64,000 nt of DNA from Shigella phage ESh20: sequence record ON528730; one strand, written 5' to 3'. Both the position numbers and the translations under genes were made by a program. This document shows positions 28,917 through 52,225 of this stretch, in pieces. The first letter of the stretch is position 1; the number at the start of each line of letters is the position of its first letter. The notes beneath the pieces were generated by a model. It had not been told where the DNA came from and searched no databases. It worked only from the letters and a program-made list of their open reading frames with translations.

Positions 28917-31677
<2,761 letters not shown>

Positions 31678-45430: not shown

Positions 45431-45454
45431 AAAAAAGACGGTGCAGAGACCGTC
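45431..45454 (-). terminator. Rho-independent terminator (minus strand) closing the tRNA array
   Basis: Minus strand GACGGT-ctctgc-ACCGTC followed by TTTTTT. Confidence 0.55.
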
Positions 45455-45611
45455 AAGGAGAAACCACAATGTATGCCAGAGACATACTGTATAGGTCTTC
45501 CCATAAAGTATAACTCTATAAAAAAGCCCTGTCTAAAAATACTCTCCGGTAGCGAAAGGGAGAATACTCATAGCAGGGCATAATAACTTTGAGAGAGATA
45601 TTAATATAAAT

Positions 45612-45687
45612 TGGAGTATCGGAAGGGACTCGAACCCTCATAAACCTGTTTTGCAGACAGGCACATAACCATTTCTGACACCGACAC
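45612..45687 (-). tRNA. tRNA-Cys (anticodon GCA)
   Basis: Acceptor GTGTCGG/CCGATAC, discriminator U, anticodon loop CUGCAAA, T-arm GAGGG-TTCGAGT-CCCTT, CCA encoded. Confidence 0.7.
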
Positions 45688-45693
45688 ATAATT

Positions 45694-45786
45694 TGGAGGA
45701 AGATACCAGACTTGAACTGGTACGCCGATTTCTCGGTTACTGGCAGTTTAGCAAACTGCTCCCTTACCTTTTAGGGTTAATCTTCC
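45694..45786 (-). tRNA. tRNA-Ser (anticodon GCT), type II
   Basis: 7-bp acceptor, T-arm ACCAG-TTCAAGT-CTGGT, long variable arm, anticodon loop TTGCTAA, 3-bp D stem. Confidence 0.65.
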
Positions 45787-45787
45787 A

Positions 45788-46522
45788 TTATTTGTTCAGA
45801 GCTTCTTTCATCTCTGGAGTTGCGATAGTATCAATCACACCAGTTTTACATGAATCATCAAACCAGCTTGGTAGAACATTCGCAAGGAAACCATTAATAT
45901 TTGTTTTCAGGTATTCTGCAATCAGTGCTGCTTCATCTGCAATCATCTGAGTTACTTCATTAGCATATGCAGTAATCTTTGCAATACCCTCATTAATCGC
46001 TGTAACGGCCTGTGTAGCGAGTTCAGAGATTGTATCTAGTCCTTGGTCGATTGCATCTTGCAAATCGCTTAGAACGCTATTTACAGCGTCTATGGAGGTA
46101 TTAATCAAATCCATCGCTTTATTACCGTACTCGGTAGCTACGCCCATGATACCGCTAAACGGTGTACATCCAACCTGTTCACCTGCTGCCCCCATAACGT
46201 TAGAGTAACCTTTAGCCACTTGCATACGTTGTGAAAACTCATCTACAGACTTTTGTCCATACTCAGTAAGTGTACTTGTCGTTGAAGTTGTACTTCCAAG
46301 GCTTGTTGTGAAGCTTCCTAATAAGGCTGTTGTCAGTCCAGCAGCAACTAAAATCTGTTGTGTAGCTGGGTCTGTTACAGAACTAATTGAGTTAACTAAT
46401 GATTGAGAGGCAGCTATAGTACCACCAAGAACTGCTGCACCAGTAATAAGAGGGTTTGAGAAACCATTACCAGTTTTAAGGAGATTAAAAATCTCTTTAC
46501 TTTGTTCTGTCATCTCTTTCAT
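45788..46522 (-). CDS. Hypothetical protein embedded in tRNA array (about 244 aa)
   Basis: ORF track frame; start moved to ATG 46522 to avoid overlap with tRNA at 46539. Confidence 0.45.
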   Translation of the reverse strand: MKEMTEQSKEIFNLLKTGNGFSNPLITGAAVLGGTIAASQSLVNSISSVTDPATQQILVAAGLTTALLGSFTTSLGSTTSTTSTLTEYGQKSVDEFSQRMQVAKGYSNVMGAAGEQVGCTPFSGIMGVATEYGNKAMDLINTSIDAVNSVLSDLQDAIDQGLDTISELATQAVTAINEGIAKITAYANEVTQMIADEAALIAEYLKTNINGFLANVLPSWFDDSCKTGVIDTIATPEMKEALNK

Positions 46523-46538
46523 TATGCACCTATAAAGT

Positions 46539-46614
46539 TGGTAGCCCATCGGGATTTGAACCCTGTTCTCATGTTTTTCAGACACGCGCTTTAACCATAT
46601 AAGCTAATTGAGCT
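46539..46614 (-). tRNA. tRNA-like gene, tentative tRNA-Phe (anticodon GAA), imperfect T-stem
   Basis: Anticodon arm CGTGT-CTGAAAA-ACATG, T-loop TTCAAAT with only 3 clean stem pairs, acceptor pairing 6/7. Confidence 0.4.
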
Positions 46615-46621
46615 ATTAAAT

Positions 46622-46698
46622 TGGGGTGACCTACGGGAATCGAACCCGTATAGACCATGTTCACAGCATGGGTCATTATCCATTTATGATAAGGCCAC
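46622..46698 (-). tRNA. tRNA-His (anticodon GTG)
   Basis: Acceptor GTGGCCT/AGGTCAC, discriminator C, T-arm ACGGG-TTCGATT-CCCGT, anticodon loop CTGTGAA. Confidence 0.7.
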
Positions 46699-46729
46699 AT
46701 TTAAGGACTCTCGTAAGAACCCTTAGAAG

Positions 46730-46805
46730 TGGCAGCAGTATAAGGATTTGAACCTTAATCTTTCAGCTTCAGAGGCTGGAGCATTGCCAGTTATGCTATA
46801 CTGCT
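46730..46805 (-). tRNA. tRNA-Gln (anticodon CTG)
   Basis: Perfect 7-bp acceptor, T-arm TAAGG-TTCAAAT-CCTTA, anticodon loop CTCTGAA. Confidence 0.6.
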
Positions 46806-46811
46806 AATATT

Positions 46812-46890
46812 TGGTACTCCATATCGGATTCGAACCGATACATAACACAGATTTTAAATCTGGCCTCTCTGCCAATTGGAGTAATGGAGC
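46812..46890 (-). tRNA. tRNA with Leu-type anticodon TAA (tentative), short variable region
   Basis: T-arm ATCGG-TTCGAAT-CCGAT, anticodon loop TTTAAAA, Leu-like D-loop containing CCAATTGG. Confidence 0.45.
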
Positions 46891-46892
46891 AT

Positions 46893-46968
46893 TGGCGGGG
46901 GATGATGGAATTGAACCATCTTCTTCGATTTCAAAGACCGAGGTTTTAACCTTGTAAACTAATCCCCT
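46893..46968 (-). tRNA. tRNA-Gln (anticodon TTG)
   Basis: T-arm GATGG-TTCAATT-CCATC, anticodon arm TCGGT-CTTTGAA-ATCGA, A1:C72 mismatch at acceptor end. Confidence 0.55.
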
Positions 46969-47194
46969 AACGAACTCTTGAAAGAATATATGCGTTATTG
47001 CAAGTATCCTTATTTTCAGGTAGTGATGTTTCGAAGATAACTTGCTTAAGTTCTAATCCAGCAAAGTTATAAACAATCTTTCTAACTTCTAACGGGTCAC
47101 ATTGCCAACCAACCGCTATAAAGAAAGTATCTCCAAATCTACCTGTTTCAATCTTGTGGTCATCTTTATGTTTTTCAACTATGAGTTTATACAT
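46967..47194 (-). CDS. Hypothetical protein within tRNA array (75 aa)
   Basis: ORF track; fills gap between two tRNAs. Confidence 0.35.
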   Translation of the reverse strand: MYKLIVEKHKDDHKIETGRFGDTFFIAVGWQCDPLEVRKIVYNFAGLELKQVIFETSLPENKDTCNNAYILSRVR

Positions 47195-47212
47195 AATGTT
47201 ACCTATTAAATT

Positions 47213-47289
47213 TGGTGCAGAATAGAGGATTCGAACCTCTAACTAACAACTTCGTAGGTTGCTGCTCTATCCATTTGAACTAATTCTGC
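47213..47289 (-). tRNA. tRNA-Arg (anticodon ACG)
   Basis: Perfect acceptor GCAGAAT, T-arm AGAGG-TTCGAAT-CCTCT, anticodon loop CTACGAA. Confidence 0.7.
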
Positions 47290-47467
47290 AATATCCTTTT
47301 GAGATTCCTGTCTAGCTCTCTTCTTATCTCTTCTGAGAAAGCGTTTACGATGGTCTGTACGCCATTTGTAATAATCTTCTTCACCATCATGTGCTGCACA
47401 GCAGCCACAACTTGCAATTTCAACTTTACCATGTCTACCATAAGGCTTCATAGGAATCTCCTAAAAT

Positions 47468-47545
47468 TGGTGTTCCAAGACGGATTCGAACCGTCACTAA
47501 TACAAGGTTTGAGCTTGCATCCTCTGCCAATTGGGATACTGGAAC
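47468..47545 (-). tRNA. tRNA with Leu-type anticodon CAA (tentative), short variable region
   Basis: T-arm GACGG-TTCGAAT-CCGTC, anticodon arm GCAAG-CTCAAAC-CTTGT, D-loop with CCAATTGG. Confidence 0.45.
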
Positions 47546-47546
47546 T

Positions 47547-47621
47547 TGGTACTCGCTGAAGGACTTGAACCTTCTTCACCAACTTGTAAGGATGGAGCTT
47601 TACCATATAAACTAAGCGAGC
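47547..47621 (-). tRNA. tRNA-Val (anticodon TAC)
   Basis: T-arm GAAGG-TTCAAGT-CCTTC, anticodon loop CTTACAA. Confidence 0.55.
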
Positions 47622-47716
47622 TTTGAAGAGGTCTGAAGCTGTGCCGCTAACTCAACTCCGTGGAATTTGTTACGGTCTTCAGTTGACTCAAGCGGTCTTT
47701 CACTTGACCTCAAAAT

Positions 47717-47792
47717 TGGTGCTCCCACAAGGATTCGAACCCTGATAAGTTGCTTACAAGGCAACCGTAATAGCCAATTATACGATAAGAGC
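47717..47792 (-). tRNA. tRNA-Thr (anticodon TGT)
   Basis: T-loop TTCGAAT, anticodon arm GTTGC-CTTGTAA-GCAAC, acceptor with two G:U pairs. Confidence 0.55.
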
Positions 47793-47798
47793 ATTATT

Positions 47799-47873
47799 TG
47801 GAGCATCCAGAGGGAATCGAACCCTCAACCTCAGTTTGGAAGACTGTAATTTTCCCGTTTAAACTATGGATGC
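47799..47873 (-). tRNA. tRNA-Gly (anticodon TCC)
   Basis: Perfect acceptor GCATCCA, T-arm GAGGG-TTCGATT-CCCTC, anticodon loop CTTCCAA. Confidence 0.7.
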
Positions 47874-47879
47874 ACTAAT

Positions 47880-47955
47880 TGGTGGAGAAGCAGGGAATTG
47901 AACCCTGTACTTAAGTTTGCAAAACTTATGTTTTAACCATGTAAACTACATCCCC
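47880..47955 (-). tRNA. tRNA-Ala (anticodon TGC)
   Basis: T-arm CAGGG-TTCAATT-CCCTG, anticodon loop TTTGCAA, G3:U70 wobble pair characteristic of tRNA-Ala. Confidence 0.7.
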
Positions 47956-47961
47956 ATTGTT

Positions 47962-48037
47962 TGGTACAGGTGGAGGGAATTGAACCCATCATCTTACTGA
48001 TTAAGAGTCAGCCGCATAACCATTTTGCTACACCTGC
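47962..48037 (-). tRNA. tRNA-Lys (anticodon CTT), T-stem with only 3 clean pairs
   Basis: Acceptor GCAGGTG/CACCTGT, anticodon arm CTGA-CTCTTAA-TCAG, T-loop TTCAATT. Confidence 0.5.
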
Positions 48038-48043
48038 ATTAAT

Positions 48044-48120
48044 TTGGTACACCTAGAGAGATTCGAACTCACACTGAGCAGATTCTAAGTCTGCTGCCTC
48101 TTCCAATTGGGCTATAGGTG
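48044..48120 (-). tRNA. tRNA with Leu-type anticodon TAG (tentative), short variable region
   Basis: Anticodon arm GCAGA-CTTAGAA-TCTGC, 3-bp D stem with loop CAATTGGAAGA. Confidence 0.45.
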
Positions 48121-48376
48121 CATTAAATCTTTGTAGAGAACTGCTAAGACGCCAAAGCAACAATGGTATCAAATGCCTTAACAATTCTCTAAAAAGACCT
48201 ATTGGCCTTTGCATAGTCTTGCTTAATCCGGTGACTAGAACCTTTGGAGAGCTTGATACTATCTCTTCTCCGTGACACCTACTAGGTGCTTTACCAGTGC
48301 CGTGTACGCCAATACACGAAGAGGAAACCTGAAACACTTGCTCGAACAAATAGTCTCAGCTTTAAATCTTATTAGG

Positions 48377-48464
48377 CGGTAGATAAAGGAGTCGAACCCT
48401 CACCGTATCTCTACAATGGCAATAGTTTTCAAGACTATTTGGCTTCCATTAGCCGCTACCTACC
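48377..48464 (-). tRNA. tRNA-Ser (anticodon TGA), type II, CCA not encoded
   Basis: T-loop TTCGACT, long variable region, anticodon arm ATAGT-CTTGAAA-ACTAT, acceptor GGTAGGT/ATCTACC. Confidence 0.5.
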
Positions 48465-48477
48465 CCTAATAAGACTT

Positions 48478-48560
48478 TGGCATGGGACGGAGGATTCGAA
48501 CCCCTTTGAGTAAGTTTTGGAGGCTTACGCACATGCCTTAGTGTCTTAACATCGTCCCAT
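48478..48560 (-). tRNA. tRNA-Trp (anticodon CCA), enlarged D region
   Basis: Perfect 7-bp acceptor ATGGGAC/GTCCCAT, T-loop TTCGAAT, anticodon loop CTCCAAA, about 8 extra nt in D region. Confidence 0.5.
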
Positions 48561-48724
48561 ACTATATTTCGAAGCTTACCCTGTTATCTCAACACTGTCA
48601 AGCTTCTTCTCAGATTATTTACATGTTCTGGAAAACATGAGATACAGACCACCTCCTTATGAGATTGACTCTTTCAAGTCAATGCGGAGACCCATAAAGG
48701 TCGTCATAGTAATCTGCTAACTAA

Positions 48725-48843
48725 TTGGCAGTCAAGGTAGGAGTCGAACCTACTTACTATTAAAGGGAGCTACCCTTCAGCAACTATCCGACTTTCGTTT
48801 ATCTCTTAACGCGTATCCAAGATAACTTACTCGTGTTGTCTTG
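48725..48843 (-). ncRNA. tRNA-like element with about 40-nt internal insertion (not a canonical tRNA)
   Basis: CCA-rc and 7-bp acceptor AGTCAAG paired with CTTGACC 119 nt apart; canonical T-arm GTAGG-TTCGACT-CCTAC; no canonical anticodon arm identified. Confidence 0.4.
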
Positions 48844-48854
48844 ACCATTAAAAT

Positions 48855-48931
48855 TGGCACACCCTACAGGATTCGAACCTGTAACTGACGGTTTAGAAGA
48901 CCGTTGCTCTATCCGTTTGAACTAAGGGTGC
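48855..48931 (-). tRNA. tRNA-Arg (anticodon TCT)
   Basis: T-arm ACAGG-TTCGAAT-CCTGT, anticodon arm ACGGT-CTTCTAA-ACCGT. Confidence 0.7.
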
Positions 48932-49178
48932 ATTATCTTTAAAGGCTCTCTTAGAAAACCCTTAAAGATGCCCACTTTATTAATCATACCGTGGGCTAGT
49001 ACGCCAAATTCTTTAACAGGGAGTTGGAATACCCTGCTGGTGTTTAGCCTATTAAGCTACTGCCAGAAAAACATTATCGTTTGCATTTATTTTTAAGTTT
49101 TTAAAATAGACGCTACGCTAACGAAAACTAAGGTTATCTTAAAGTGGTCACATCTGAATGTCAACAACTTTATGAAAT

Positions 49179-49254
49179 TTGGTACTGGTAGGTGGAATCG
49201 AACCACCGATATTCCCTTATCAGGGGAGTGTTATAACCTTCTTAACTATACCAG
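49179..49254 (-). tRNA. tRNA-Ile (anticodon GAT)
   Basis: T-arm GGTGG-TTCGATT-CCACC, anticodon loop CTGATAA. Confidence 0.65.
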
Positions 49255-49256
49255 CA

Positions 49257-49333
49257 TTGGAGGTTCAGGTGGGAATCAAACCCACATTCATAGGGCTTAT
49301 GAAACCCTTGCATTACCTTATCTGCGACTGAAC
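49257..49333 (-). tRNA. tRNA-Met (anticodon CAT), elongator-type (G1:C72 paired)
   Basis: Perfect acceptor GGTTCAG, T-arm GTGGG-TTTGATT-CCCAC, anticodon loop TTCATAA. Confidence 0.6.
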
Positions 49334-49415
49334 CATTATAAGTTGCCCCTTTGTAGAGAACTGATTGAGTGGGTGTTTCCAGCCGCGCATGTGTTCTTCA
49401 GTTAAGGGGCGAATT

Positions 49416-49491
49416 TGGTAGAAGTGGAGGGATTCGAACCCGTCGCCTGTCAGATTAAAAGTCTGCCGCATCACCATTCTGCTACACTTCC
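49416..49491 (-). tRNA. tRNA-Lys (anticodon TTT), same T-stem pattern as Lys(CTT)
   Basis: Anticodon arm CAGA-CTTTTAA-TCTG, T-loop TTCGAAT with 3 G:C pairs. Confidence 0.5.
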
Positions 49492-49914
49492 ATTAAATCA
49501 TCTTTGCAGTAACCTACGCAAACCTTGCTAAAGGGTTTGTAGAGTCATCTCTTATAAGCTAATCTAGAATCATGCTCAAGAGACTCTTCGGCACTCATGG
49601 GACGACTGGTTAGCTCCATAAGTCACTGCAAAGAGGATTACCAGACCGTATTTATCTTAAGTGCTTCCATTACACCAACACGCCGTAACGTGTGAAGGAA
49701 TCGAACCTTCGCCTTTTCTTTATAAGAGAAATAGATTGTTTATTGTTTGCTGTAAACGGTCTTCTGTAAAATTGTTGGAACCAGACCAAGTTTTAAATTT
49801 TTCAAATTAAATTGGCTTGAAATATTAAAATTGCTTGCTGTATTTGGTCTTCTGCTCCTTTAAAGAATACTCGTAAGAACTCTTTAAGGGAGGGGCTAAA
49901 AAGCCCTCTCAAAT

Positions 49915-49991
49915 TTGGCGGTTACGAAGGGATTCGAACCCTCATCATCCTCCGTGACAGGGAGGTATTTTGACCAGTTAAACTACATAAC
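49915..49991 (-). tRNA. tRNA-Asp (anticodon GTC)
   Basis: T-loop TTCGAAT, anticodon arm CCTCC-CTGTCAC-GGAGG. Confidence 0.7.
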
Positions 49992-49997
49992 CTTTAT

Positions 49998-50085
49998 TTG
50001 GTGCGCCGTGAAGGAGTCGAACCTCCCGAGTCATAATGACAAGTGATTTACAGTCACCACCGCTTCCATCTACGGGATAACGACG
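49998..50085 (-). tRNA. tRNA-Tyr (anticodon GTA), type II
   Basis: T-loop TTCGACT, long variable arm hairpin, anticodon loop CTGTAAA, 3-bp D stem. Confidence 0.6.
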
Positions 50086-50154
50086 CATTTTATTCTATTC
50101 AGGCTAAGGACTTGCACCTTACAAATCGGTGAGCAATCGCTTCTCTCCCAAATC

Positions 50155-50231
50155 TTGGCGGTTAGTCAGGGATTCGAACCCTGTACCATTCGGTTAACAG
50201 CCGACCGCACATGCCTTATGTGCTTCCTAAC
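50155..50231 (-). tRNA. tRNA-Asn (anticodon GTT)
   Basis: T-arm CAGGG-TTCGAAT-CCCTG, anticodon arm TCGG-CTGTTAA-CCGA. Confidence 0.65.
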
Positions 50232-50315
50232 CATGTTAGTATTACCAGACCGTATCTTTTCATTTTTTGCCTATAAAAAATTTTAAGTGTTTGCTGTAAA
50301 CGGCCTTCTGTAAAT

Positions 50316-50392
50316 TTGGAGGCGGGTGTAGGAGTCGAACCTACCGATAACATGCTAATGAGACATGTGAGACACCCTTTCTCTATACCCGC
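50316..50392 (-). tRNA. tRNA with CAT anticodon and unpaired position 1:72 (initiator-like or Ile2-like)
   Basis: T-arm GTAGG-TTCGACT-CCTAC, anticodon loop CTCATTA closed by T:G pair, U1:C72 mismatch. Confidence 0.5.
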
Positions 50393-50479
50393 AATTCTTA
50401 ATGACCAGACCAAATCTTTTTTGGATTTCTATGCGCGAAATTGAAAAGTTTGTTTGCTGTAATTGGTCTTCTGTCAAAA

Positions 50480-50557
50480 CTGGCATTCCCGAAGGGACTT
50501 GAACCCTCAAACCACACCTTGAAAGGGTGTTGACTTTACCTAATTTGTCTACGGGAA
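50480..50557 (-). tRNA. tRNA-Glu (anticodon TTC)
   Basis: Perfect acceptor CGGGAAT/ATTCCCG, T-loop TTCAAGT, anticodon arm ACACC-CTTTCAA-GGTGT. Confidence 0.7.
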
Positions 50558-50563
50558 TATAAT

Positions 50564-50643
50564 TTGGTCTCCGTTGAAGGATTTGAACCTTCGACCCCTT
50601 GCTCCCAAAGCAAGTGCTGCTAAACCAAACTGAGCTAAACGGA
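50564..50643 (-). tRNA. tRNA-Pro (anticodon TGG)
   Basis: Perfect acceptor, T-arm GAAGG-TTCAAAT-CCTTC, anticodon arm CTTGC-TTTGGGA-GCAAG. Confidence 0.7.
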
Positions 50644-50775
50644 GATAATCTTTTTAACAACCTATGTAACAACTATAACACTATTTTTTAGTGTCTGTCA
50701 AGAGGTTTTTTAAAATAATTTGATTTATTTCAGAAAACTTCTTTTTCGTTTCTATGTAGAACATATTAAAGGGTA

Positions 50776-50809: not shown

Positions 50810-52225
50810 TTACCAATCGTAGCGTTCAATAATTACTGCTTTGAGCATTACGCTGATAGGGTCAAACTTCTCACCACCAAGCAAAGCTTTTAAAGTGGCT
50901 GGAGAGAAACCAGATACCATCGCTACACCGTTATCCTTTACAGACACTTCGCAAGTACCGTTACGGTTTGCTAAGTACCAGAATACCAGTTGTGGCATCT
51001 CATATCCAGCTTTCTTGTACTTTTCTTGAATTGCTTCAAAGTTAGTACGACCATCTGCTCCATCAACCTGATTAAACTGCATATCAGAGAAGATGATAAG
51101 CTTACTAGGCATCTCTTTCTGAGTCAAGTTGTTTTTAACACCAGTCTCAAGGATTCTTGCAAAAGCAGCTTGTAGGTCAGTTGAACCATACTCTACATGA
51201 CTCTTCACTTGACGTAAGCGAGTCTGTAAATCACCACTCAATGTGATGAAGTGAGGTCTGCTAGAGTAAACCATCAATTCATCTTTAAAGCAACCTGTAT
51301 TACGTTCTGAAACGTACAGGGCTAAAGATACACCAATGTCTAGCGCTGTAACAGAACCATGTCGCTCCCAAGTCATAGATGAAGATACATCTGCCATGCA
51401 CAGAATGTTCTCACCCTCTTTCATCCAGTTTGGTAAAGCTTTCCACTGCTCATTTGCAACGGTTGCATTACCATAACCGACTGACTTTGTAATGTCATAA
51501 GGGTAGACTGCACCAGCATTAATCTTTGTCTCACCTTTAGTCAGTGCTGCAATGTATGCTGCATAACGCTCACCATCTTTACGACTGAAGAGTTTTTGAT
51601 AACGTGCAGCAGCCAGTGAAGGAAGCTTGCTGTAATCAATCTCTCCGAACTCATTTGCTGAAATCTTTTGTTCAACAGTATCAGACAGTGCTGACAGAAG
51701 AACTCGATACTGCTTCTCTGAAAGATTTGCAAACTTACAGAAACGACGAACAAAACGCATGTGTCGTGATTTTACTCGTGGTAACCATTTTGCTGCCAGA
51801 GCCGATGTTGCAGGGTCTAACAGTGCAGCTTCTAAATGCTTGAAAGCATCTGTTTCGTAACGTGTACCAACAAAGATTTTAAAGTCGTCATAACGACCTA
51901 AATCAGAAATCTTGTCCATGATACGTAACACTTGGAACTCATCAAGAATCCCGTCAGAGATTGCTTTAGTAAGAGTATAACGGAACGCTTTACGCTCACC
52001 CATACCTTCTCGTGCATCTCGCATATGTAACAGGATTCGAACTGCTACATCAATATCTTCTCGCATTGCCTTGTAAAACAAGTTTGGAAGAACTTCTACG
52101 TTTGTTCTGCTTGAACCAGCAGCTTTGTAGAAATCTACCAGTGCAGACATTGAAGAGGTGTGGTTAACAGCACCGTTTTCAGTTAAACCTGCATGTAAAT
52201 GCGAGTGTTTAAATAATTCGCTCAT
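50810..52225 (-). CDS. vWA-domain protein with N-terminal domain of unknown function
   Basis: MIDAS-like DxSxS motif in ILCMADVSSSMTWERHG at about residue 279; 471 aa; adjacent to tRNA array. Confidence 0.55.
   Translation of the reverse strand: MSELFKHSHLHAGLTENGAVNHTSSMSALVDFYKAAGSSRTNVEVLPNLFYKAMREDIDVAVRILLHMRDAREGMGERKAFRYTLTKAISDGILDEFQVLRIMDKISDLGRYDDFKIFVGTRYETDAFKHLEAALLDPATSALAAKWLPRVKSRHMRFVRRFCKFANLSEKQYRVLLSALSDTVEQKISANEFGEIDYSKLPSLAAARYQKLFSRKDGERYAAYIAALTKGETKINAGAVYPYDITKSVGYGNATVANEQWKALPNWMKEGENILCMADVSSSMTWERHGSVTALDIGVSLALYVSERNTGCFKDELMVYSSRPHFITLSGDLQTRLRQVKSHVEYGSTDLQAAFARILETGVKNNLTQKEMPSKLIIFSDMQFNQVDGADGRTNFEAIQEKYKKAGYEMPQLVFWYLANRNGTCEVSVKDNGVAMVSGFSPATLKALLGGEKFDPISVMLKAVIIERYDW

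Follow-up and report, generated by a model that had tools for sequence, protein, structure and literature searches.

Two protein-coding genes within the tRNA array

The DNA analysed here (the window, 64,000 nucleotides of Shigella phage ESh20 from sequence record ON528730) belongs to a Mooglevirus of the subfamily Ounavirinae and shares 99.7% identity with the Shigella phages Sf18 and Sf19. Its 26 tRNA genes, found by ARAGORN and confirmed by Rfam, all lie on the minus strand; Rfam adds one weak tRNA-like element at 49686..49760. Two reading frames, here called ORF-A and ORF-B, occupy spacers between these tRNA genes and lie on the tRNA strand (Table 1), just as an earlier sequence-only reading of the window had described them. 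That reading also gave ORF-A a length of 244 aa, which stands. The longest frame at this position is 45788..46585 on the minus strand (265 aa, GTG start), the first 21 codons of which overlap tRNA-Phe, and the ATG at 46522, with AGGTG ahead of it, is the start kept in all relatives.

Both genes are already known, being annotated as hypothetical in dozens of genomes of the Felix O1 and Moogle types, including near-identical published ones, and as sequence features they are ordinary. On the basis of family membership and selection, presented below, we are confident that these are genuine genes of a Felix O1-like myovirus (Mooglevirus), sited in spacers of its tRNA array.

Table 1. Features of the tRNA array and of the two genes that it encloses (positions in the window)
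Feature	Position	Strand	Source
Whole tRNA array, 26 genes enclosing ORF-A and ORF-B	45612..50644	minus	ARAGORN, Rfam
Two terminator-like hairpins, past tRNA-Cys and ahead of the packaging genes	45437..45487	minus	
tRNA-Ser(GCT), 5' end 1 nt past the ORF-A TAA stop	45694..45786	minus	ARAGORN, Rfam
ORF-A TAA stop codon	45788..45790	minus	sequence
ORF-A, 244 aa, DUF7217 family; predicted acidic ten-helix bundle, conserved Cys119 and Cys225	45788..46522	minus	
ORF-A leader, 16 nt, from the tRNA-Phe CCA end to ATG; Shine-Dalgarno AGGTG at 46527..46531	46523..46538	minus	
tRNA-Phe(GAA), immediately upstream of ORF-A	46539..46614	minus	ARAGORN, Rfam
tRNA-Gln(TTG), first two bases (46968, 46967) inside the ORF-B stop	46893..46968	minus	ARAGORN, Rfam
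ORF-B, 75 aa, phrog_14202, Ounavirinae only; ATG start, AGGT ahead	46967..47194	minus	
ORF-B leader, 18 nt, from the tRNA-Arg(ACG) CCA end to ATG; AGGT at 47201..47204	47195..47212	minus	
tRNA-Arg(ACG), immediately upstream of ORF-B	47213..47289	minus	ARAGORN, Rfam
Second promoter-like match, within the array; TTGACA, 17 nt, TAAGAT	49136..49164	minus	
Sigma-70-like promoter match just upstream of the first tRNA; TTGACA, 18 nt, TG-TATAGT (11/12)	50672..50701	minus	

Probable transcription and processing of the array

The two genes are packed tightly against their neighbours. Upstream, they are separated from the preceding tRNAs by 16 and 18 nt; downstream, a single nucleotide lies between the ORF-A stop and tRNA-Ser, and the ORF-B stop codon (TAG, 46967..46969) supplies, with its A and G, the first 2 nt of tRNA-Gln. 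Such gaps leave no room for a private promoter or terminator, so co-transcription with the tRNAs, which the sequence-only reading had proposed, is forced by the layout; a search of the minus strand from 50768 to 45487 found no terminator-like site. Judged from this arrangement, co-transcription is very probable. The length of the ORF-A leader and its AGGTG motif are kept in Felix O1, wV8, ESh21, HP1 and Erwinia phage Rouille. In Rouille it is a tRNA-Ser that lies upstream of the ORF-A homologue, yet the junction of CCA, 16 nt and ATG, with its AGGTG, is preserved.

Both genes would be transcribed within the tRNA precursor, which probably runs from sigma-70-like promoters near 50701 and 49164 to the hairpin terminators at about 45487-45437, the second of which reads GACGGTCTCTGCACCGTC followed by TTTTTT. 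The inner of the two promoter-like matches occupies the position equivalent to that of the proposed Felix O1 promoter 'P45' (PMC3185647). Transcripts of Felix O1 ORF45, 46, 48 and 49 have been found by RT-PCR, all peaking at 5 min (PMC3185647, Table 3). The same table has the major capsid gene in the 5-min class too, and is therefore noisy (PMC3185647). A literature search for transcriptomes of Felix O1-like phages gave nothing relevant.

The enzymes that free the tRNAs would also excise the ORF-A and ORF-B messages. If RNase P cut at tRNA-Ser, 1 nt would remain past the stop codon of the ORF-A message, and a cut at tRNA-Gln would take two bases from the stop codon of ORF-B. Because cleavage would thus bare one stop and strip the other, translation would have to compete with processing and use precursor that is still uncut or only partly cut. 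The two genes are candidates for tRNA-punctuated messages, in which RNase P removes or bares the stops and tRNA processing thereby sets the protein yield; we advance this idea alongside the apical-cap reading of ORF-A given below, of which it is independent, and regard it as speculative. The layout itself is a clean bacterial case of messages lying between tRNAs almost without untranslated regions, and could be used for studying the competition of tRNA processing with translation.

The ORF-A family

ORF-A is a full-length member of the Pfam family DUF7217 (PF23854), which it matches with E = 3e-84 and 282.9 bits (gathering cut-off 29), residues 7-242 aligning to positions 1-237 of the 238 in the model; its match to phrog_2114 has E = 2.8e-109. 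The product is 100% identical to gp26 of Sf14 and is the orthologue of Felix O1 ORF49. It is 81-83% identical to its orthologues in Felixounavirus, the genus of Felix O1, and about 30% identical to proteins of the Ackermannviridae. The family is represented by 584 phage records and by 75 clusters at 50% identity, nearly all of 220-290 aa, and full-length matches reach down to 23% identity. Orthologues are found throughout the Ounavirinae, and dN/dS values of 0.07-0.16 against them indicate purifying selection.

The sequence-only reading left both genes without a function, in line with their annotation as hypothetical; for ORF-A, the family provides contextual clues. NCBIfam gave nothing meaningful for this protein, the PADLOC defence models gave only a weak match of coiled-coil type to the tail of ZorA (E = 9e-4), and a literature search found no papers on 'DUF7217'. 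The name 'Red protein' of Felix O1 (O80222) was set aside, as it carries no usable lead and a literature search on it came back empty. P0041 (149 aa, not compared with O80222) is a chimeric fragment, the C-terminal 81 residues of which are DUF7217.

AlphaFold2 models ORF-A as an all-helical protein of ten helices (pLDDT 96.2, pTM 0.86), and Thr (11.5%), Ala (11.5%), Ser (9.0%) and Gly (8.2%) are prominent in its composition, so that the earlier description of an Ala/Thr/Ser-rich helical protein was apt. The prediction for the product is a bundle of ten helices, elongated, acidic and soluble. Foldseek searches with the model found nothing significant in the PDB (best E = 0.18, TM < 0.4), and in BFVD matched other DUF7217 proteins only. 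Sequence-profile matches to PDB entries (designed bundles, spike HR1, haemagglutinin HA2, SNAREs and apolipophorin-III) are of the coiled-coil or heptad type and were rejected as compositional.

Two cysteines, Cys119 and Cys225, are both present in 60 of the 68 family members and both missing in seven. The only sequence with a single cysteine of the two is truncated, and the pair otherwise co-varies perfectly, a pattern suggesting that a Cys119-Cys225 disulfide probably locks the bundle.

Some records label proteins of this family as an integral membrane protein or holin. We reject this label, since alignment of the family and Kyte-Doolittle analysis found neither a conserved signal peptide nor a conserved transmembrane segment. 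In ORF-A the highest-scoring Kyte-Doolittle window of 19 residues reaches 1.62, the family median being 1.35, and the position of this window differs between members; the N-terminal hydrophobic stretch is lost in relatives at 23-34% identity, and AlphaFold2 packs the helices of the hydrophobic stretches into one bundle.

A possible virion protein linked to the tail tip

Mass spectrometry of purified Ackermannviridae virions has detected protein homologues of ORF-A (PMC3296691, PMC10892097). The DUF7217 protein of LIMEstone1 is ORF129 (25.03 kDa), which was detected at 18% coverage and is annotated as a 'confirmed structural protein'; according to the LIMEstone1 paper, every unknown structural protein there has a structural counterpart in phage ViI. 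That of Sajous1 is gp166 (DUF7217, E = 6.5e-99), for which CsCl-purified virions gave 8 spectra, the same count as for the tail completion protein, with the authors cautioning that low spectral counts may be contaminants.

Gene order suggests a more precise location. A PAAR gene lies immediately upstream of the DUF7217 gene in the metagenomic phages L014, L018, L019 and L027; in L028/L029 it is also upstream, with one gene in between. The genes of L018 run from baseplate through gp5-like hub and PAAR to DUF7217. The DUF7217 copies of these phages are only 26-35% identical to each other. A place directly after PAAR, or one gene after it, is what one would expect of a protein carried by the spike tip or assembled with it. 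In the window, the other Ounavirinae and the Ackermannviridae, no PAAR or spike gene stands next to DUF7217, and tblastn found no PAAR gene in the 64-kb window. The needle of Sf14 is of the P2 gpV type.

We tentatively read ORF-A as a virion or tail-tip protein, a reading to which we give somewhat less than an even chance. It would most likely be a low-copy component of the virion at the membrane-puncturing tip of the tail, delivered to the host envelope on infection, where its small-residue, apolipophorin-like helices may act on membranes. Taken as a whole, the combination of genuine genes, co-transcription with the tRNAs and a tail-tip virion protein encoded by ORF-A is our best explanation of the locus, and comes close to being an even bet.

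A more specific version, put forward together with the tRNA-punctuated messages, would make DUF7217 (Sf14 gp26) the 'apical cap' seen on the needle of the Sf14 tail; it is conjectural. Equally so is its broader form, in which the family would represent a new class of disulfide-locked helical-bundle protein on the spike tips of contractile tails, beside or instead of PAAR. Such a cap would open on contact with the envelope, aiding passage through the membrane. The lead is testable, and the family concerned is conserved in two large groups of therapeutic-candidate myoviruses, the Ounavirinae and the Ackermannviridae, and its putative virion protein, probably disulfide-bonded and linked genetically to the spike tip, is a candidate for an unassigned density in a published cryo-EM map.

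Other roles considered for ORF-A

ORF-A could instead be a non-structural early protein, made along with the tRNAs and acting in the infected cell or at the inner membrane (taking over the host, excluding superinfection or maintaining the envelope are examples), in which case the mass-spectrometry hits in the Ackermannviridae would be carry-over. We hold this to be possible, if rather unlikely. A sigma-70-like promoter does lie upstream of the array, and a structural gene would not usually have its transcript in the 5-min class, as Felix O1 ORF49 does. The protein is also missing from two virion inventories of close relatives, ORF49 not being listed in the whole-phage shotgun proteome of Felix O1, nor gp26 among the structural proteins of Sf14 that a published mass-spectrometry table records. 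Depositors label orthologues of ORF-A 'putative membrane protein', the homologue in one Acinetobacter phage sits within a run of small early-like genes, and the 8 spectra of Sajous1 gp166 are few. However, at least two Ackermannviridae, and three by report, have a homologue in their virions; the adjacency to PAAR and hub genes recurs in divergent phages, and the LIMEstone1 gene carries a late-promoter annotation. A strictly co-varying cysteine pair is hard to square with a cytoplasmic protein, and the lack of a conserved transmembrane segment or signal peptide in the family counts against a role at the inner membrane.

The 'Gp49, 51 kDa' band of Felix O1 was rejected as evidence on ORF49, which is a 25 kDa protein; the band is probably the 48.9-kDa gp63 of the shotgun list.

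Another reading would place ORF-A in the head rather than at the tail tip, as an internal or ejection protein that is packed into the capsid and leaves it together with the injected DNA. The Ounavirinae gene directly precedes a small ORF, the large terminase and the portal module, the homologue in Kuttervirus and Limestonevirus comes after the head gene block, and ORF-A weakly matches the capsid scaffolding family of T4 (E = 0.018). In T4, moreover, internal-protein genes flank the tRNA cluster. Yet adjacency to PAAR and hub genes indicates the tail, the nearest structural neighbour in the Ackermannviridae is a gp3-like tail completion gene, and no protease-cleaved targeting sequence was identified in ORF-A, all of which makes a head protein improbable.

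Somewhat less probable still is a role in assembly, as a chaperone or adaptor of the central spike or PAAR tip, with the protein not kept in the finished particle. The adjoining PAAR and hub genes would suit such a protein, just as adaptor genes of type VI secretion systems adjoin those of PAAR and VgrG, and so would its absence from, or scarcity in, several virion proteomes. On the other hand, LIMEstone1 virions contain the homologue, at the coverage and with the structural annotation given above, and co-variation of the cysteines suggests exposure to an oxidising compartment. We keep the tail-tip virion protein as our tentative reading of ORF-A.

ORF-B and its slot

ORF-B matches phrog_14202 (E = 3.4e-43) over residues 1-75 of 76. 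A profile search of 5.8 billion proteins found its relatives only in Ounavirinae-type phages or contigs thereof. There is no Pfam match and no nuclease motif; PADLOC gave nothing, and NCBIfam nothing meaningful. The AlphaFold2 model is of low confidence (pLDDT 67), and with it Foldseek returned only non-significant partial matches to ribosomal protein uL23; the product is predicted to be a small alpha/beta protein. In other phages, ORF-B is translationally coupled to the gene of a DUF7338 membrane protein.

Close relatives show four states of the slot between tRNA-Arg(ACG) and tRNA-Gln(TTG). In Sf13-16 nothing fills it; the window, Sf17-19 and ESh21 have only ORF-B there, Felix O1 has only DUF7338, and wV8, UAB_69, phiWec172 and HP1 have both genes. 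Judged by these genomes, ORF-B is a dispensable accessory gene in a slot of gain and loss. Conservation in the tRNA arrays of related phages, a point raised by the sequence-only reading, thus differs for the two genes: ORF-A lies between tRNAs in both Felixounavirus and Mooglevirus, and the ORF-B slot is variable.

Such variability, together with the TAGG direct repeat that flanks the ORF-B indel and the HNH endonuclease genes that fill other slots in Felix O1 and wV8, could mean that ORF-B is the cargo or remnant of a mobile element, comparable with the homing endonuclease genes in other tRNA-array slots of the Felix O1 and T4 types. We think this quite unlikely, as the protein lacks a nuclease motif or Pfam match, is too small at 75 aa for an endonuclease, and where present is under strong purifying selection (dN/dS 0.04-0.22 against orthologues; 23 invariant residues among sequences 44-96% identical to ORF-B). 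A tblastn search of the 64-kb window found neither HNH remnants nor a DUF7338 remnant.

That the two frames are untranslated products of chance in tRNA spacers, as their shortness, their setting in an RNA-gene cluster and the lack of direct proteomic support in ESh20 might suggest, is scarcely credible, and for ORF-A effectively refuted, in view of the full-length family matches at low identity, dN/dS well below 1, the conserved Shine-Dalgarno motif and spacing, homologues seen as protein and the very confidently predicted fold of ORF-A; the matches to Pfam and PHROG families and the dN/dS values bear out the earlier claim of real coding sequences.

Comparison with known systems

The closest likeness of ORF-A is with the other members of DUF7217, such as Sf14 gp26, Felix O1 ORF49, LIMEstone1 ORF129 and Sajous1 gp166, with which it shares length, the cysteine pair, an N-terminal F-x-LL-x-x-G-x-x-F-x-NPL motif and a C-terminal LP-W-x-x-D-x-C motif. 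The protein itself does not differ from this family, which has no assigned function. The location of the gene does: only Felixounavirus and Mooglevirus have it between tRNA genes, whereas in Kolesnikvirus the gene lies past the last tRNA and in the Ackermannviridae it is found in the head/tail region, with no tRNA genes among its annotated neighbours.

Like apolipophorin-III and the Senescence domain of spartin, ORF-A is an all-helical bundle rich in small residues. It matches the Senescence domain with E = 5e-5 and 23.7 bits, below the cut-off of 24.6, and has weak matches to the apolipophorin-III and tape-measure families (E = 0.004-0.04, those to apolipophorin-III being about 0.01-0.04); the Sf14 record for gp26 cites CATH 1.20.120.20. 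As all matches to exchangeable-apolipoprotein bundles fall under the curated thresholds, they reflect a likeness of composition and not membership.

In T4, gp5.4 sits at the tip of the spike, and type VI secretion systems have PAAR-linked cargo and adaptors. Five divergent phages likewise pair DUF7217 with PAAR. Unlike these PAAR-associated proteins, DUF7217 carries neither a toxin or enzyme domain nor a known adaptor domain, and its putative link to PAAR is one of gene order.

Homing endonuclease genes, such as those for the HNH proteins ORF44, 45 and 47 of Felix O1 and segB of T4, are also ORFs on the tRNA strand in the spacers of tRNA arrays. Pfam, NCBIfam and PHROG found no HNH, GIY-YIG or LAGLIDADG domain in ORF-A or ORF-B. 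Homing endonuclease genes are present or absent among close relatives; ORF-A, by contrast, is a fixed gene of all Ounavirinae. When Rfam was scanned for a Y-RNA-like partner of the Ro-like protein encoded nearby, the sole result was a YrlA match below threshold, overlapping two tRNAs.

Co-transcripts of tRNA and mRNA are known from the thrU-tyrU-glyT-thrT-tufB operon of E. coli, from the ORFs in the tRNA regions of phages T4 and T5, and from mitochondria, with their 'tRNA punctuation'. As in these systems, the coding sequences described here would lie on a tRNA precursor and, to judge from the layout, be freed by the tRNA-processing nucleases. There is a resemblance to mitochondria in detail as well: ORF-A and ORF-B likewise abut tRNAs almost without untranslated regions, and the stop codon of ORF-B overlaps a tRNA. 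We know of no routine completion of truncated stop codons in bacteria, so that cleavage at tRNA-Gln is expected, unlike in mitochondria, to destroy the stop codon of ORF-B.

Two conserved genes in the tRNA array

Across 45500..47500 the sequence shares 99.7% identity with Sf18 and Sf19, both Shigella phages, and 99.5% with Sf17 and 3HA14, and by this sequence comparison the phage belongs with Mooglevirus, in the Ounavirinae (Felix O1 relatives). The tRNA array is followed on the same strand by a small ORF, the large terminase gene and the portal gene, and has upstream of it a DUF5681 protein and an 'RNA-binding' DUF2828/DUF7788 protein, whose domains are related to the Ro60/TROVE and vWA domains. 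An Rfam scan gave no convincing Y-RNA-like partner for this DUF2828/DUF7788 protein.

Features in and around the tRNA array
Feature	Position	Strand	Basis or remark
ORF-A (DUF7217)	45788..46522	minus	244 aa
ORF-B	46967..47194	minus	75 aa
tRNA array, 26 genes	45612..50644	all minus	ARAGORN; confirmed by Rfam
tRNA-Arg(ACG)	47213..47289	minus	
tRNA-Ser(TGA)	48375..48464	minus	
Terminator-like hairpins	45487-45437	minus	consensus scan
Strong sigma-70-like site (TTGACA, 18 nt, TG-TATAGT)	just upstream of first tRNA		consensus scan
Second sigma-70-like site	49164		consensus scan; equivalent of Felix O1 'P45' proposal
DUF2828 + DUF7788 protein	50810..52225	minus	471 aa; phrog_850 'RNA-binding protein'; adjoins array upstream
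70-aa ORF	47239..47451	minus	phrog_10765
Match to Felix O1 ORF46 (65 aa)	48203..48403	minus	translated match, 69% identical
Borderline 27th tRNA-like element	49686..49760	minus	Rfam 30.1 bits vs gathering score 29; no ARAGORN call
Long ORF-free gaps	48465..48854, 48932..49179, 49492..49915		

The sequence-only reading had placed two ORFs between tRNA genes, on the tRNA strand, and both are borne out at these coordinates. ORF-A and ORF-B are genes, annotated in Sf18 as the hypothetical proteins gp112 and gp111, respectively. Read mechanically, the ORF-A frame runs to a GTG at 46585, within tRNA-Phe; its start is the ATG at 46522, which every orthologue shares and which follows AGGTG at a distance of four bases. 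ORF-A matches Pfam DUF7217 (PF23854, E = 3e-84) and phrog_2114, and has orthologues in each Ounavirinae genus sampled, with identities of 82-92% in Felixounavirus and Suspvirus, 45% in Erwinia Kolesnikviruses, 43% in one Yersinia phage and ~30% in Ackermannviridae. The family totals 584 phage records, and an exhaustive profile search yields 75 clusters at 50% identity, nearly all of stand-alone proteins of 220-290 aa. ORF-B matches phrog_14202 and has relatives in a subset of Felixounaviruses (79-80 aa, 42-49% identity, 23 invariant positions); none was found beyond the Ounavirinae, even by profile search. Both ORFs are conserved, with dN/dS against orthologues well below 1 (0.07-0.16 for ORF-A, 0.04-0.22 for ORF-B).

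The slot of ORF-B, between tRNA-Arg(ACG) and tRNA-Gln(TTG), takes four states among the phages compared. In Sf13-16 it is empty, the two tRNAs lying 9 nt apart. The window, Sf17-19 and ESh21 have just ORF-B there, and Felix O1 has just ORF48, a DUF7338 membrane protein of 185 aa. In wV8, UAB_69, phiWec172 and HP1 the slot holds both genes, which overlap at ATGA. A TAGG direct repeat bounds the ORF-B segment lacking in Sf15 (L003 3468..3478). ORF-B is thus dispensable, although strongly constrained where retained. Its predicted structure, arranged beta-beta-beta-alpha-beta-beta, is of low confidence (pLDDT 67) and matches no other structure significantly. That it might act together with DUF7338 is a guess from the translational coupling.

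The 70-aa ORF is preceded by a strong ribosome-binding site, AGGAG, and encodes a protein that is rich in Cys at its start and basic in its middle. The final 51 nt of the ORF overlap tRNA-Arg(ACG); it is kept in ESh21 and Sf15 and missing in the Felixounaviruses wV8 and phiWec172, where only 5 nt separate tRNA-Leu(CAA) and tRNA-Arg. The ORF46-like match begins within tRNA-Ser(TGA), and the first start codon of its frame lies 54 nt downstream, at 48349. The match represents a non-coding RNA that has been conserved, or else an ORF called in error in Felix O1. The borderline tRNA-like element, which may be a degenerate tRNA, sits in a 424-nt gap between tRNA-Lys(TTT) and tRNA-Asp. Where the window has its long ORF-free gaps, the corresponding part of the Felix O1 and wV8 arrays has spacer slots filled by genes for HNH homing endonucleases (ORF44, 45 and 47 in Felix O1); tblastn detected no HNH remnant in the window.

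tRNA-mRNA junctions

tRNA-Phe ends in CCA (46539) 16 nt (ACTTTATAGGTGCATA) ahead of the ORF-A ATG, and a single base lies between the TAA stop (45790..45788) and the 5' end of tRNA-Ser(GCT) at 45786. Similarly, 18 nt separate the CCA end of tRNA-Arg(ACG) from the ORF-B ATG, and the A and G of the ORF-B TAG stop (46969..46967) double as bases 1-2 of tRNA-Gln(TTG), the 5' end of which is put at 46968 by both ARAGORN and Rfam. In our reading of its acceptor stem, this tRNA has an A1-C72 mismatch. The junction upstream of ORF-A (CCA, 16 nt with AGGTG, ATG) is kept in Felix O1, wV8, ESh21 and HP1, and also in Erwinia phage Rouille, though there the upstream tRNA is Ser, not Phe.

The gaps flanking the ORFs cannot hold a promoter or terminator, sigma-70-like sites lie upstream, and minus-strand terminator-like hairpins occur solely after tRNA-Cys. 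Co-transcription of both ORFs with the tRNAs, as first proposed from the sequence, is therefore inferred from the gene layout. RNase P acts at tRNA 5' ends. Its processing would leave an ORF-A message with a single base beyond the stop codon and would cut the stop codon of ORF-B, so productive translation of either would be expected on the unprocessed precursor.

DUF7217 proteins in virions

Published virion proteomes contain members of the ORF-A family. ORF129 of LIMEstone1 belongs to DUF7217 (29% identity, E = 4e-27), is annotated 'confirmed structural protein' and has a gp3-like tail completion gene two genes away. The LIMEstone1 paper lists it as an 'unknown structural protein' (25.03 kDa, 18% ESI-MS/MS coverage), and its authors state that every unknown structural protein there has a structural counterpart in phage ViI. 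In the Kuttervirus Sajous1, the DUF7217 gene product gp166 (E = 6.5e-99) gave 8 spectra in CsCl-purified virions, equal to the tail completion protein gp168. Against this, the orthologue ORF49 is unlisted in the Felix O1 shotgun proteome, and Sf14 gp26 is missing in the published structural table. A copy number as low as one to a few per particle could account for the detections and the absences alike.

The Felix O1 paper gives 'Gp49' as a 51-kDa structural protein, possibly the sheath (PMC3185647). In record NC_005282, ORF49 (29271..30005; L008 7272..8006) is the 244-aa DUF7217 gene of the tRNA array, and its 25-kDa product led us to reject this band as ORF49. The band better fits the 48.9-kDa gp63, and the name is likely a labelling slip that has since spread to Felix O1 structural lists.

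Predicted structure and a paired cysteine

The first description of ORF-A as an Ala/Thr/Ser-rich helical protein agrees with its composition (Thr, Ala, Ser and Gly make up 40% of residues) and with a very confident AlphaFold2 model with ten helices of up to 57 residues (41-sequence family alignment; pLDDT 96.2, pTM 0.86). The protein is acidic, with 26 Asp+Glu versus 12 Lys+Arg. No solved structure matches the model significantly, and in a viral predicted-structure library it matches DUF7217 proteins only. Some records label ORF-A a 'membrane protein'; we find this unsupported, as its N-terminal helices are moderately hydrophobic while their counterparts in relatives are not (the median best 19-residue hydropathy window of the family is 1.35). 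Weak similarities to Senescence domain, apolipophorin and tape-measure families suggest that the product could possibly be membrane-active.

Two cysteines co-vary perfectly among 68 family members: 60 have both, seven have neither, and the sole member with one is a truncated sequence. Such a pair reads as the signature of a disulfide or other paired function, and argues for a protein found in an oxidising compartment.

Gene neighbourhood and possible function

The order DUF5681, DUF2828/DUF7788, tRNAs, DUF7217, small ORF, large terminase, portal is typical of Ounavirinae-like phages and holds down to 23% DUF7217 identity (metagenomic phage L012, from DUF5681 to large terminase). In Kolesnikvirus the DUF7217 gene comes after all the tRNAs; the embedding of the gene in Moogle- and Felix-type phages thus amounts to tRNA-Ser and tRNA-Cys on its far side.

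In contractile systems, as known from T4 gp5.4 and type VI secretion, the spike that pierces the membrane is capped by a PAAR protein. A PAAR-motif gene lies upstream of DUF7217 in five of the eleven distant family members looked up, all five in divergent metagenomic phages: directly upstream in L014, L018, L019 and L027, and one gene further in L028/L029. L018 has the series baseplate proteins, gp5-like hub, PAAR, DUF7217. As the PAAR-linked copies are only 26-35% identical to one another, the linkage has outlasted long divergence, and given the role of PAAR proteins we consider it the best functional clue available. No PAAR gene was detectable in the 64-kb window. On one short contig from a metagenome, DUF7217 is preceded by a gene (L016 1..582) that has a sub-threshold match to Peptidase_M15_3 (19.4 bits, cut-off 23.2) and that may be another cell-envelope-related neighbour.

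The best reading, quite possible if short of probable, is that the ORF-A product is a virion protein of low copy number with a functional link to the tail tip. Felix O1 ORF45, 46, 48 and 49 transcripts were found by RT-PCR, each peaking at 5 min (PMC3185647), a timing to which we give little weight, since the same table also has the capsid gene at 5 min; beside the virion detections, an early non-structural protein is an unlikely reading of ORF-A. A head-internal protein seems very improbable, and an assembly chaperone slightly more so.

The Sf14 cryo-EM paper describes a P2-type needle (gp47) topped by an apical cap, the identity of which it calls 'currently unclear'. That ORF-A is this cap is rather improbable, the 85-Å-long bundle not being an obvious 'dome'.

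Both ORFs are already in public annotation, the ORF-A family is already in Pfam, and ORF-A itself is 100% identical to Sf14 gp26. New in our analysis are the covariation of the cysteines, the linkage to PAAR genes, the connection with virion proteomes already published, and the closeness with which tRNAs and mRNAs adjoin.
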